This document shows, one piece after another, positions 9,689 through 14,111 of a DNA stretch of 32,000 bases. Each line of letters starts with the position of its first letter. The stretch's first letter is position 1. The translations under genes and the position numbers were made by a program. This stretch comes from Nitrosarchaeum sp. (GTDB lineage: Archaea > Thermoproteota > Nitrososphaeria > Nitrososphaerales > Nitrosopumilaceae). The stretch is from contig OZ245020.1 in assembly GCA_965223865.1 (NCBI GenBank), positions 678,971 to 710,970 of the forward strand, read 5' to 3'. A model generated the notes under the pieces. It searched no databases. It saw only the letters and a list, made by a program, of their open reading frames with translations, and was not told the origin of the DNA.

Positions 9689-10024
9689 ATGAATAAAACA
9701 ATACTTTTAGCAGCATCCTTGACTGCTGTCGTCTTCACCATGGGTTACTATGCAGAAAATACAGTTGCATTTGCACAGTATATGGGTAACGTAGGCAGTG
9801 GAGGAGAAACCGGAGCATATACCTTAGAAGAAGCACTCGAAATTCAAAGAAGAAGAATTGATGCAGCAGAAGCAAATCCAGCATCTGGTTCAGGCACACC
9901 CTATCTTGATGCAAGTGGTGTAGTTGGTGCATCAGTTATTGCAGGTGCAGTCTTTGGTGGTATTGCAGCAGCCTTCTTCATTAGAGGAAGATCTGGAAAA
10001 TACGCAGCAATGGGAAGAGGGTAG
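9689..10024 (+). CDS. Small membrane protein (N-terminal signal/anchor plus C-terminal TM helix); candidate AMO-associated subunit (AmoY/AmoZ-type)
   Basis: 111 aa. Hydrophobic N-terminus ILLAASLTAVVFTMGYYA. Gly/Ala-rich C-terminal helix GASVIAGAVFGGIAAAFFIRGR. It lies four genes from amoB and shares upstream and downstream sequence elements with the amo genes. Confidence 0.6.
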   Translation: MNKTILLAASLTAVVFTMGYYAENTVAFAQYMGNVGSGGETGAYTLEEALEIQRRRIDAAEANPASGSGTPYLDASGVVGASVIAGAVFGGIAAAFFIRGRSGKYAAMGRG

Positions 10025-10137
10025 ACAAACCTCATTTTTCTCTTATTTTATTAGAATCTCCCTTAGAGGATGCTGATCTCGTACTTTTTGAAAATAAAGG
10101 AAATATATATATCGCACAAATTTAGTCAAAATATACA

Positions 10138-10407
10138 ATGACTCCTATCGTAGGAACTTTCCTAAGCATCCTGTCATCAGTAACAGGACAATTAGGACCA
10201 AACTATGATCCATTATTCTATGATGTAATGATTTACATCTTTGGAACCATGATGTTTGCTGTATTCCTTCTTGGAATTATCTCATTTTGGTTACGTGTTC
10301 ACGGATGGTCATACAAGGATAACCGTGAAAGATGGATCGATGAATTGGACAGACACTTTGAAAGAGAAGGTATCGGTCTAATTCCAGACAACGGTAAATA
10401 CTGGTAA
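10138..10407 (+). CDS. Small single-pass membrane protein with charged C-terminal tail; candidate AMO-associated subunit (AmoY/AmoZ-type)
   Basis: 89 aa. Strong TM segment VMIYIFGTMMFAVFLLGIISFWL followed by the charged tail KDNRERWIDELDRHFERE. It has its own AT-rich promoter-like region and a pyrimidine-rich 3' flank similar to that of amoA, amoB and amoX. Confidence 0.6.
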   Translation: MTPIVGTFLSILSSVTGQLGPNYDPLFYDVMIYIFGTMMFAVFLLGIISFWLRVHGWSYKDNRERWIDELDRHFEREGIGLIPDNGKYW

Positions 10408-10498
10408 AATTACTTCCTTTCTTCTTTTCATTATTTTTAGATTTTGTAATTTGTGATTTTACCTAAGTATTATTTCCAAACTAAAAACTTTGAAATTT

Positions 10499-11068
10499 CT
10501 AGTTTTCTGGAGGCAAAAAGTCTGATTCTTTTGCTTCATCAAATGCCTTTGAGGTAAAGACTGCCTTGTAATAATATCCGTCCTGGAATGGATGATTTAT
10601 GAAATGTTCTGATTCTATACCATTAACATAAATGGTTGATTTTGACTGGTCCATATCTCTTAATGGAAAATCCCACATCCATAAAAAGTGGCCAATTTCA
10701 AATGGGTATTCTTCCTCCCATTCCGCATAAATGGTCCCATCATCAGTTAAAGTATACATAGTTCTATGACATTCACCATCTCCAATTCCTATGTTTGCTG
10801 GTATGTCTGCCTTTTGATTGTCTACAATCAGTTCTAAGGTTGCCTTTATTTTGTAAGGTGTATTCCTGTCATTTATGCAAACCTTTAGAGGGTTATCTGT
10901 GTTAAGTGCTTGCTGAGCAAATGTACTGACTGCCGCTACTGAAATTCCTATTATGGCCGTAATTAGCAGAAATTTTAGAGTTTTTTTTCTCTTGTATGGA
11001 TCCCCCATCCCTGGCCAAAACATGTGATGATTCTCCATAGATTCCTTAAAGTCCTTTCTGTCAGTCAT
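10499..11068 (-). CDS. Membrane-anchored exported protein of unknown function, downstream of amoB
   Basis: The ORF track opens at TTG 11080. I prefer ATG 11068..11066 (MTDRKDF...), which overlaps the upstream ORF stop as ATGACTGA. It has one TM anchor, FLLITAIIGISVAAVSTFA. The extracytoplasmic domain has two Cys (KVCIND, GECHRT) and several His, Trp and Met. Confidence 0.55.
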   Translation of the reverse strand: MTDRKDFKESMENHHMFWPGMGDPYKRKKTLKFLLITAIIGISVAAVSTFAQQALNTDNPLKVCINDRNTPYKIKATLELIVDNQKADIPANIGIGDGECHRTMYTLTDDGTIYAEWEEEYPFEIGHFLWMWDFPLRDMDQSKSTIYVNGIESEHFINHPFQDGYYYKAVFTSKAFDEAKESDFLPPEN

Positions 11069-11375
11069 CCATAATTTCAATGGTATCTAATTGATCCTGA
11101 TGATCTGCAAGAAAATAGGTTATTTCATCTGAATCAATCTCGAGCCATTCTGACTCTCCACAAAAAAGAAGGTAATCCTCAACAACCAAATCTTTAGGGC
11201 CTGTAATTCTTACAACTAATCTTTCTTTTTTTGGTTTGTATCCAAAGGGGAGTTTTAGTACTTTGCCTCTCTTTTGATTTTGTATGTTGACTTTGTATTT
11301 GTCATCTCGAAATTTAACTTTGCCAAAAAAATAACTTTGAAAAATATCTAGTTTTATAATTTTAAAACTTAGCAT
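11061..11375 (-). CDS. Small soluble protein of unknown function, immediately downstream of amoB
   Basis: 104 aa with no TM segment and an acidic C-terminus. It is co-directional with amoB (111 nt gap). It is translationally coupled to the next ORF by an 8-nt overlap. Confidence 0.5.
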   Translation of the reverse strand: MLSFKIIKLDIFQSYFFGKVKFRDDKYKVNIQNQKRGKVLKLPFGYKPKKERLVVRITGPKDLVVEDYLLFCGESEWLEIDSDEITYFLADHQDQLDTIEIMDD

Positions 11376-11458
11376 ATTTTTCCTTTTTTTTCATTGCAGA
11401 TAAAACTTGGTTATTTTTGATTGTGAGTTGTTATTGCGTAAAACGTAATGATTGAATT

Positions 11459-11482
11459 TAAAATGAAAAGGAAAAGGTTGGG
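11459..11482 (-). terminator. Pyrimidine-rich 3' element CCCAACCTTTTCCTTTTCATTTTA, 4 nt after the amoB stop
   Basis: The reverse complement of 11459..11482 equals 14115..14138 exactly. Confidence 0.5.
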
Positions 11483-11486
11483 TGGT

Positions 11487-12160: not shown

Positions 12161-12311
12161 AAATGAAAAAATAACTATGAAATTATTACATAAATTATCT
12201 GTTTAAAGAAAAAATTTTGGATCAAAATAACTTAAAATTAACAAGAAATTTTGAAAATTTTTTGAATTTTAGAACTCTTGCTTTATATTCCGAATTTACT
12301 TGATTAATACC

Positions 12312-12875
12312 ATGGCACAGATGCCCGCATTAATCCCAAAAGAAGTTGAGATTCAGAGACTAAAGAAAATCTGGCTCATCGTTATTGCTATGGGATCCAC
12401 TGCAGCATCAGTCGAAGTAGACAACTTCGTTGATGGTTCTTTACATCAAACCTCTATCAGAGATAGTGCATTTACACCAGCACACTGGTGGCTATACTCC
12501 CACTTCATTACATTACCTCTTGGATGGGCAGCAGCAGCTATGTATGATAGAAAAGTTCCAGTTCTTAGAGGTCCAAATAACTCAATTAACACTGGATTGA
12601 AGATGACCATTCTTGGTTACCTTGCAACCATGTTTACAATTGGAGTCAATGAGATGTGGCACTTTTGGTTCGTAGAGGAAATCTTTGCAGTTCCAAATCA
12701 CTGGATGTTTAACATGGGTGTGGTAGTTGCATTCATGGGTGCATTAGCATACGTAGTCAGAGTATATGCTAGACTCGTAGAACTTGGTGCAGAAACTCCT
12801 GGTGAGAATCCATATGTTGCAGAAATGTACAAGATGGCTTTAGAAGGCAAATTGTACAGCAGAGCAATCCCATAG
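12312..12875 (+). CDS. amoC: Ammonia monooxygenase subunit C (archaeal)
   Basis: The ORF track opens at TTG 12300. ATG 12312 gives MAQMPALIPKEVEIQRLKK, which I recognise as the Nitrosopumilus AmoC N-terminus. It is a polytopic membrane protein (HWWLYSHF, NEMWHFWF). Confidence 0.95.
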   Translation: MAQMPALIPKEVEIQRLKKIWLIVIAMGSTAASVEVDNFVDGSLHQTSIRDSAFTPAHWWLYSHFITLPLGWAAAAMYDRKVPVLRGPNNSINTGLKMTILGYLATMFTIGVNEMWHFWFVEEIFAVPNHWMFNMGVVVAFMGALAYVVRVYARLVELGAETPGENPYVAEMYKMALEGKLYSRAIP

Positions 12876-12880
12876 AAATC

Positions 12881-12920
12881 GTGCAATACGCACATTTTTT
12901 CTCTTTTATTATTTTTATAA
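12881..12920 (+). terminator. Hairpin GTGC-AATAC-GCAC followed by T-rich tract after amoC
   Basis: The hairpin at 12881-12893 lies 5 nt after the amoC stop. It is followed by TTTTTTCTCTTTTATTATTTTT. Confidence 0.4.
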
Positions 12921-12990
12921 AGACGTAGATCGTACCTGCTTAACCATTTAAGAAAGACTTAAAAGGATTCTGATTAGTTATAATTCCATA

Positions 12991-13353
12991 ATGACTCTTC
13001 CTAAAGGATTCGGTTCTGGCGGAGGCGGTGGTGCATCCAGCGCTGATGTAGAACGAATGATTGGAAAACGCGTTGAAAACATGACTGGTATGATTACTAT
13101 ATCATACATAGCAGCTTGGTTGGCAACTTTCGGTGGTACTGCAGCCGGATATTTCTATTATCCATGGGCATATCCAACTCCAAGTGGCCACTTTGCATTC
13201 ATCACGCTCACAATCATTGAGGCGATTGGTTATCTCTTCTGTGTTAAGGTAATGCAAGAAGGTTCCAACAAGAATAGTAATGGGTTGGTTGCTGGAGTAA
13301 TAGCTGGTACAGCAATAGGTACACTCATTATTGTATGGTTCGTCGGTCACTAG
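12991..13353 (+). CDS. amoX: AmoX, small membrane protein conserved between amoC and amoA in archaeal AMO loci
   Basis: 120 aa with a Gly-rich N-terminus and about three hydrophobic helices. Its position between amoC and amoA matches the conserved archaeal gene known as amoX/ORF38. Confidence 0.8.
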   Translation: MTLPKGFGSGGGGGASSADVERMIGKRVENMTGMITISYIAAWLATFGGTAAGYFYYPWAYPTPSGHFAFITLTIIEAIGYLFCVKVMQEGSNKNSNGLVAGVIAGTAIGTLIIVWFVGH

Positions 13354-13460
13354 AAGGGAATCCCTTCAGACACTTCTTTTTCATTTTAATTTTTACCTGA
13401 AATTGCCGATCTTCATCACACTCTAAAATTTTATATACTGACCATTTCCTCAGTTTGATA

Positions 13461-14111
13461 ATGGTCTGGTTAAGACGATGTACCCACTACTTGTTCATAG
13501 TAGTAGTTGCAGTTAACTCAACACTGTTAACAATTAATGCAGGTGACTACATCTTCTACACTGACTGGGCTTGGACTTCGTACACGGTATTCTCAATATC
13601 GCAAACGTTGATGCTTGTAGTAGGTGCAACATATTACCTAACATTTACAGGTGTTCCAGGTACAGCAACGTACTACGGCCTTATTATGACAGTATACACA
13701 TGGGTTGCAAAAAGTGCATGGTTTGCACTTGGATATCCATACGACTTCATTGTAACCCCAATTTGGTTACCATCAGCAATGCTGCTTGATCTAGCTTATT
13801 GGGCGACAAAGAAGAACAAGCACTCTTTGATACTGTTTGGCGGAGTACTAGTAGGAATGTCATTGCCATTATTCAACATGGTAAACCTGATAACAGTAGC
13901 AGACCCACTAGAAACGGCCTTCAAATATCCAAGACCTACTTTACCACCATACATGACACCGATAGAACCGCAGGTAGGAAAGTTCTATAACAGTCCAGTT
14001 GCACTGGGTGCTGGTGCGGGTTCAGTATTGGGAGTAACGTTTGCAGCGCTAGGTTGTAAACTCAACACTTGGACATACAGATGGATGGCCGCTTGGTCAA
14101 AGTGGGACTAA
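13461..14111 (+). CDS. amoA: Ammonia monooxygenase subunit A (archaeal)
   Basis: The ORF track opens at TTG 13455. ATG 13461 gives MVWLRRCTHYLFIVVVAVNSTLLTINAGDYIFYTDWAW (216 aa), the familiar Nitrosopumilus-type AmoA sequence. Confidence 0.97.
   Translation: MVWLRRCTHYLFIVVVAVNSTLLTINAGDYIFYTDWAWTSYTVFSISQTLMLVVGATYYLTFTGVPGTATYYGLIMTVYTWVAKSAWFALGYPYDFIVTPIWLPSAMLLDLAYWATKKNKHSLILFGGVLVGMSLPLFNMVNLITVADPLETAFKYPRPTLPPYMTPIEPQVGKFYNSPVALGAGAGSVLGVTFAALGCKLNTWTYRWMAAWSKWD

Follow-up and report, generated by a model that had tools for sequence, protein, structure and literature searches.

Two small membrane-protein genes in the amo cluster of a Nitrosarchaeum genome and their identification as amoZ and amoY

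Introduction

Much of the world's nitrification depends on archaeal ammonia monooxygenase (AMO), whose true set of subunits remained an open question until 2023–2026. Hodgskiss et al (2023) named two proteins of ammonia-oxidising archaea (AOA), AmoY (NVIE_004540, with the counterparts NCAV_0488 and Nmar_1506) and AmoZ (NVIE_004550, with the counterparts NCAV_0486 and Nmar_1507), and placed them, together with AmoX, in the complex by blue-native gel co-migration, in-gel cross-links and modelling; co-regulation with AMO and restriction to AOA were also reported (PMC10030591). Here we analyse the amo region (positions 9689–14111) of a 32,000-nucleotide stretch of DNA from Nitrosarchaeum sp. (GenBank assembly GCA_965223865.1, contig OZ245020.1, positions 678,971–710,970; hereafter the window), and in particular two small open reading frames (ORFs) that very probably encode AmoZ and AmoY.

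According to the same paper, amoZ lies directly upstream of amoY; the pair and the amoB cluster are one or two genes apart in most Nitrosopumilaceae, and 11–12 genes apart in Nitrosotalea (PMC10030591). A bioRxiv preprint of September 2026 presents the AMO of N. maritimus in native membranes, determined by cryogenic electron microscopy (cryo-EM) at 2.88 Å, with eight subunits per protomer (10.64898/2026.08.31.748207). That work calls AmoY AmoF and AmoZ AmoG and reports them as a clamp-like heterodimer located between protomers, the N-termini bridging the periplasmic domains and the C-termini the cytoplasmic parts, and a helix of AmoG stands in for one that is absent from archaeal AmoB (10.64898/2026.08.31.748207). 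The same preprint describes AmoE, a marine-specific seventh subunit encoded in the amo cluster (10.64898/2026.08.31.748207).

The window carries a textbook copy of this extended cluster and therefore adds no new kind of component: AmoY and AmoZ are rediscovered here as a published gene family in a published arrangement, already known, and the value of the locus is confirmation. What goes beyond the literature we read is confined to a GATC-containing box near a Dam-type methyltransferase gene, the degenerate histidine motifs of the AmoE-like protein, and an apparently cytoplasmic Nmar_1504-like protein.

Results and Discussion

Identification of amoY and amoZ

The two ORFs lie on the forward strand and start with ATG, one at 9689–10024 (111 amino acids, aa) and the other at 10138–10407 (89 aa), as described in an earlier note made from the sequence of this DNA alone. 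That note believed them to be AmoY and AmoZ and left undecided which is which, a question that comparison with the published sequences settles. In the supplement of Hodgskiss et al, NCAV_0488 corresponds to UniProt A0A2K5APV6 (85 aa) and NCAV_0486 to A0A2K5APZ8 (130 aa) (PMC10030591). Over 83 of its 89 residues, the 89-aa protein matches NCAV_0488 with 52% identity (E 6e-33), and it is 54% identical to the homologue in Nitrosocosmicus franklandus. The 111-aa protein shares 36% identity with NCAV_0486 (E 1e-10), 47% with the Nitrosotalea protein that precedes AmoY (E 3e-23) and 36–37% with the corresponding Nitrososphaerales-like proteins. Cluster look-ups likewise recovered A0A2K5APV6 and A0A2K5APZ8 among the homologues of the 89-aa and the 111-aa protein, respectively. 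On the strength of this homology to NCAV_0488 and NCAV_0486, which bears out the note's belief, we therefore assign 10138–10407 to amoY (amoF in the preprint's naming) and 9689–10024 to amoZ (amoG), both encoding accessory subunits of archaeal AMO, with high confidence.

Database searches returned 1239 homologues of the 111-aa protein and 153 of the 89-aa protein, all unnamed and from Nitrosopumilus, Nitrosarchaeum, Nitrosotalea and relatives. Scans of both ORFs against Pfam and NCBIfam gave no curated family, solely sub-threshold DUF6404 and FixQ noise, and no unrelated characterised family, an outcome that the earlier note had regarded as fatal to its proposal, matches either protein. The DUF6404 match was discarded as noise. 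A sequence search of the PDB with both ORFs gave no match, the archaeal AMO entry 9XJ2 not being among the entries searched.

Conservation and gene order

For comparison we used the best 80 of at least 552 contigs that carry a relative of the 89-aa protein (one genome per species scanned), all 80 of which belong to Nitrosopumilaceae. Among the loci listed, the closest is on the Nitrosarchaeum sp. chromosome OZ245014.1; neither the 80 loci nor those cluster members that carry names include a record of Nitrosopumilus maritimus SCM1. The amoY gene has an ATG start and exactly 89 codons in all 80 loci, and amoZ has 109–112 codons in 75 of 76. In comparisons with the window, the median ratio of nonsynonymous to synonymous substitution rates (dN/dS) comes to 0.07 in amoY and 0.22 in amoZ; the core genes amoA, amoC and amoB have 0.05, 0.05 and 0.08. 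Both ORFs are thus real protein-coding genes under purifying selection. Besides those of Nitrosopumilaceae, members of the AmoY family turned up in Nitrosotalea, Nitrosotenuis, Nitrososphaeraceae, Nitrosocosmicus and Nitrosocaldus.

Nearly all 80 loci share the order DHH phosphoesterase, S15, amoZ, amoY, ORF174, ORF104, amoB, amoC, amoX, amoA and adenine methyltransferase, where ORF174 and ORF104 denote two genes named here for the length of their products. In the window, amoZ is directly upstream of amoY and two genes separate the pair from amoB, in agreement with the published arrangement (PMC10030591). The Z–Y pair recurs in other lineages: a Nitrosocaldus locus has it directly next to amoB, amoC, amoX and amoA, Nitrososphaeraceae-like loci have it beside S15, and so does a Nitrosotalea locus, where amoB and amoC are ~8 kb and a dozen genes away, in agreement with PMC10030591.

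Architecture of AmoY and AmoZ

AmoY of the window (10.5 kDa) consists of an N-terminal extracellular segment, which ends in the motif QxGPxYDPLFYD, invariant in the alignment, followed by a single transmembrane (TM) segment (residues 30–48) and a conserved, charged cytoplasmic tail. The earlier description of one TM helix with a charged tail is upheld by the hydropathy profile. With the known AmoY proteins (NVIE_004540, NCAV_0488 and Nmar_1506; AmoF in the preprint) it shares the size class (85–94 aa, ~10 kDa), the single TM helix, the position directly downstream of amoZ and a conservation as strong as that of the core subunits. Nothing of substance sets it apart: it is a Nitrosarchaeum-type ortholog, 91–98% identical to those of other Nitrosopumilaceae, and its C-terminal tail ends in NGKYW, whereas that of Nitrososphaerales AmoY ends in EKHHW.

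AmoZ has a hydrophobic N-terminus (residues 4–17) and one strong TM segment (78–96) according to hydropathy. Its N-terminal segment ends in AFA directly before Q, and this site is kept as AxA before Q in homologues from Nitrosocaldus and from Nitrososphaerales-like genomes. Because the site is conserved in such distant homologues, residues ~1–28 are most likely a cleavable signal peptide and not a second TM helix. The earlier view of a protein with hydrophobic helices at both ends therefore holds for the C-terminal one only, the N-terminal one more probably being the signal peptide. Parts of the mature protein are an amphipathic stretch (YTLEEALEIQRRRIDAAEA), the GSGT motif, which is invariant, and a TM helix rich in Gly and Ala (AVFGGIAAAFF); a basic cytoplasmic tail ends the chain, and residues 44–62 would form a short extracellular amphipathic helix. 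For both AmoY and AmoZ, the N-terminus is placed outside and the C-terminus inside the cell, a topology that fits the positive-inside rule and the description in the preprint.

The window protein shows the features that characterise AmoZ: an N-terminal part that is exported and predicted to be helical, a flexible linker, and a single TM helix towards the C-terminus. Like the known AmoZ proteins (NVIE_004550, NCAV_0486 and Nmar_1507; AmoG in the preprint), it has a signal peptide, a short helical extracellular part, the GSGT motif, a TM helix of the form AxFGGxxAAFF and a basic tail, and its gene likewise lies between S15 and amoY. It differs in being shorter (111 aa versus 123–130) and in its modest identity to the Nitrosocaldus protein (36%), which carries, in the alignment, an insert of ~13 residues with two cysteines that the window protein does not have.

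Codon usage and regulatory elements

Two sequence-based proxies of expression place AmoY and AmoZ with the core subunits. Synonymous divergence is 0.29 for AmoY and 0.40 for AmoZ, compared with 0.30–0.37 for amoC, amoA and amoB, 0.58 for S15, 0.67 for ORF104 and 0.70 for the 193-aa ORF as which ORF174 is listed. A codon log-likelihood score that set amoABC against 18 further ORFs from the window revealed an amoABC-type bias in AmoY (z +7.5), AmoX (+6.9) and AmoZ (+4.7), values reached by none of the 18 background ORFs; S15 and ORF104 score like the background and ORF174 is intermediate (+2.5). From sequence alone, then, AmoY and AmoZ bear the marks of core subunits: constraint, the codon bias of highly expressed genes and a common upstream box.

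This box, GATCTCGTAC, a putative cis-regulatory element, occurs upstream of amoZ at 9605–9614 (forward strand; conserved in 77 species) and as an exact repeat upstream of amoY at 10075–10084 (forward strand; at least 90% conserved in 80 loci). Each copy is accompanied by a TATA-like element on the same strand, TTTAGAATAAAAGTTAAATAAC at 9635–9656 for amoZ (at least 90% conserved in 77 loci) and AAATATATATATCGCACAAAT at 10101–10121 for amoY (a block likewise at least 90% conserved), whose promoter function is presumed. The latter element lies ~32 nt before the ATG of amoY and therefore implies a very short leader. After amoZ follows a conserved T-rich, terminator-like block, TTTTTCTCTTATTTTATT (10035–10052, forward strand), which resembles the element after amoC at 12896–12913. 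Since promoter-like blocks precede both genes and the T-rich block follows amoZ, amoZ and amoY are likely separate transcription units with their own promoters. The earlier note had credited each ORF with its own AT-rich promoter-like region; the regions are indeed there, and their support comes from the conservation of TATA-like block and box upstream of each gene in 72–80 species, not from AT-richness.

A box with the same GATC core precedes five genes of the cluster, amoZ, amoY, amoB (12114–12125, reverse strand), amoX (12928–12935) and amoA (13408–13417), ~25–30 nt upstream of the TATA-like element. No such box was found before amoC, ORF174, ORF104 or S15. The sharing of non-coding motifs with the amo genes, proposed earlier, thus stands for the box before amoB, amoX and amoA and for T-rich 3′ motifs, and fails for the box at amoC. 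A common GATC box upstream of amo genes would allow their co-regulation.

The 3′ motifs come in three kinds. An identical 25-nt element, ACCCAACCTTTTCCTTTTCATTTTA (mRNA sense), follows amoB (11459–11483) and amoA (14114–14138); a CTTTTCATT(A)TTTT motif follows amoX (13374–13388) and amoY (10424–10438); and a TTTTTCTCTT-type motif follows amoZ (10035–10052) and amoC (12896–12913). They are probably shared terminator or 3′-end elements.

A D12-class N6-adenine DNA methyltransferase gene (14253–15113; PF02086, E 2.5e-63) neighbours amoA in most of the 80 loci. The window shows no depletion of GATC (114 sites versus 128 ± 11 expected). Box conservation and synteny would be compatible with a model in which this enzyme reads or modifies the GATC box, making the AMO genes, amoY and amoZ included, a methylation-sensitive regulon; we regard this as a long shot. 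A literature search on GATC methylation in Nitrosopumilus yielded nothing usable.

Proposed role and alternative explanations

Membership of the complex and the clamp role are taken from the literature, to which the present analysis adds homology, synteny, constraint, topology, codon bias and conserved promoters. Combining the two, amoZ and amoY would each be transcribed from their own promoter, with the GATC-core box permitting co-regulation. Both products would be inserted as single-pass membrane proteins with the N-terminus outside and the C-terminus inside, AmoZ being exported first by means of its cleavable signal peptide, and would pair, as published for their counterparts, in a clamp-like heterodimer between neighbouring AmoABCX protomers. 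Their extracellular N-termini may contact the cupredoxin region of AmoB, and their charged cytoplasmic tails may tie the protomers together. Their TM helices would add membrane anchoring in place of the second TM helix and C-terminal domain of bacterial AmoB/PmoB, both absent from archaeal AmoB. Such a placement would make their role structural, in trimer assembly and stability, and not catalytic. The topology and the conserved charged termini agree with this clamp picture without proving it.

The nearest functional analogues are bacterial AmoB/PmoB's second TM helix and C-terminal cupredoxin domain and the supernumerary helices of particulate methane monooxygenase (pMMO) and AMO, which according to the papers do the same job of anchoring and making inter-protomer contacts around the A/B/C core. 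In the window, however, the job falls to separate small genes rather than to parts of AmoB, and the PDB sequence search detected no similarity between the window proteins and parts of bacterial AmoB/PmoB.

Several observations weigh against reading the two ORFs as AmoY and AmoZ, stable members of the complex. The similarity of AmoZ to its Nitrosocaldus counterpart is modest and resides partly in low-complexity and TM sequence, and orthology to Nmar_1506/1507 and NVIE_004540/004550 is deduced from gene order and the papers rather than from direct alignment. One Nitrosocosmicus locus has AmoY without an adjacent Z homologue. There is no cysteine in the window AmoZ or in any aligned marine homologue, and a disulfide between two cysteines of the soluble domain was predicted in the N. 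viennensis AmoZ model (PMC10030591). Marine AmoZ does not have the two-cysteine insert, and the predicted disulfide therefore cannot form; as it was a prediction for one lineage and not a defining property, its absence is a lineage difference and does not exclude the protein from the family. The cryo-EM evidence (coordinates 9XJ2) comes from an un-refereed preprint (10.64898/2026.08.31.748207). Lastly, AmoZ came away from the complex in gels of N. viennensis, and its expression was lower in N. maritimus (PMC10030591).

This last point bears on the idea that AmoY and AmoZ are loosely or transiently associated factors for assembly, stability or regulation instead of stoichiometric structural subunits. 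AmoZ ran largely apart from AmoABC in blue-native polyacrylamide gel electrophoresis of N. viennensis, and amoZ was expressed below the other subunit genes in N. maritimus (PMC10030591); in our data, too, constraint is lower in AmoZ (dN/dS 0.22) than in AmoY, and so is codon bias. On the other hand, in N. cavascurensis AmoZ migrates together with the complex and was cross-linked to it (PMC10030591), both chains are built in every protomer of the cryo-EM structure (10.64898/2026.08.31.748207), and AmoY is constrained as much as AmoB. We therefore consider loose association improbable for the pair.

It is less probable still, and in our view very unlikely, that the ORFs encode unrelated small membrane proteins whose proximity to amo is a by-product of an old S15–DHH neighbourhood. 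The divergent S15 / Z–Y arrangement does persist where amoABC lie elsewhere in the genome: Nitrososphaeraceae-like loci keep it with no amoABC nearby, so that the pair is not linked to amoB everywhere. Against a mere neighbourhood effect, Nitrosocaldus, the earliest-branching AOA lineage according to PMC10030591, has all six genes together, in the order S15, Z, Y, amoB, amoC, amoX, amoA without intervening genes; the codon bias and GATC box of Y and Z are common to the amo genes and not to S15; and co-migration, cross-links and restriction to AOA have been reported (PMC10030591).

A further idea, in which the 89-aa protein would serve a terminal oxidase as a small FixQ/CcoQ-like subunit (PF05545, cbb3 oxidase) and not AMO, is hardly conceivable: both are tiny single-pass proteins, FixQ/CcoQ stabilising a large membrane oxidase, 14 of 20 AmoY family members give weak PF05545 matches (best E 0.0017) and one JGI record labels a homologue as a cbb3 oxidase subunit (probably a mis-annotation), but these matches are all far below the Pfam gathering threshold (29 bits, compared with a score of 11.8 for the window protein), confined to the TM helix and without common context, a resemblance and not membership. 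To our knowledge, no cbb3 oxidase is known in AOA. AmoY itself co-migrates with AMO (PMC10030591), and the identification of the pair as AMO subunits remains the preferred reading.

Genes between amoY and amoB

The earlier note passed over two conserved genes within its interval, both on the reverse strand: ORF174 (10499–11023, 174 aa) and ORF104 (11061–11375, 104 aa). ORF174 is listed as 10499–11080 (193 aa), but its true start is 11023 and not 11080, because the upstream extension contains stop codons in homologues; the protein begins MFWPGMGDPYKRKK. It has one TM helix (18–36) and an extracellular domain of ~135 aa with two conserved cysteines, and its AlphaFold2 model (predicted local distance difference test, pLDDT, 89) gave weak, β-grasp-like structural matches. 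Nearly all 80 loci have the gene; it adjoins amoY and not amoB in Nitrosotalea and is absent from the Nitrosocaldus and Nitrososphaeraceae-like loci examined.

ORF174 is the probable counterpart of the preprint's AmoE, and would correspond to Nmar_1505 by elimination and gene order, the preprint text giving no locus tag or sequence. The six-component AMO that the earlier note read from the window is hence probably an under-count for the marine lineage, as ORF174 fits AmoE and the preprint has eight subunits per protomer. An exhaustive HMMER search with ORF174 collected 139 cluster representatives, including distant single-TM relatives (25–35% identity); the family is not in Pfam. These distant relatives carry HIH and HTHD..G.IH.E motifs, replaced in the amo-linked protein by YKIK, YTLTDD and IYAEW, and one distant member of the family has no linkage to amo genes.

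ORF104 occupies the position of Nmar_1504 and encodes a strongly conserved soluble protein (dN/dS 0.08), with no signal peptide and background codon usage. According to the preprint, Nmar_1504 is not part of the complex and is described as cupredoxin-like and as partnering the extracellular domain of AmoB (10.64898/2026.08.31.748207). The ORF104 model is all-beta (pLDDT 93). A Foldseek search of the PDB gave no fold match with an E-value better than 0.2 and, among the best 50 matches listed, no chain of PmoB or AmoB, and a profile search recovered no AmoB or PmoB sequence. A serpin match of the ORF104 profile (E 3e-4) was rejected as spurious, consisting of three weak, scattered segments. The cupredoxin-like description was thus not reproduced for ORF104, and its predicted cytoplasmic location sits uneasily with that role. 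Annotation of the amo cluster should include both the putative AmoE and the Nmar_1504-like protein.

The remaining cluster and its neighbours

Pfam and NCBIfam uphold the assignments of amoB (11487–12056, reverse strand, 189 aa; PF04744, NF041640), amoC (12312–12875, forward strand; PF04896) and amoA (13461–14111, forward strand; PF12942, E 1.5e-115). AmoX and the four small or unknown proteins have no curated family match in either collection; amoX (12991–13353, forward strand, 120 aa; AmoD in the preprint) is named from the literature by its place between amoC and amoA and is conserved in 59 loci. An Rfam scan of 9000–14600 gave nothing credible.

The DHH phosphoesterase and S15 genes (7692–9562, reverse strand) are divergent from amoZ. 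They stay beside amoZ–amoY in the Nitrosopumilaceae, Nitrosotalea, Nitrososphaeraceae-like and Nitrosocaldus loci examined, even with amoABC elsewhere. Two start codons of the ORF list, TTG 12300 for amoC (191 aa) and TTG 13455 for amoA (218 aa), are probably wrong, the conserved ATG codons being at 12312 and 13461.

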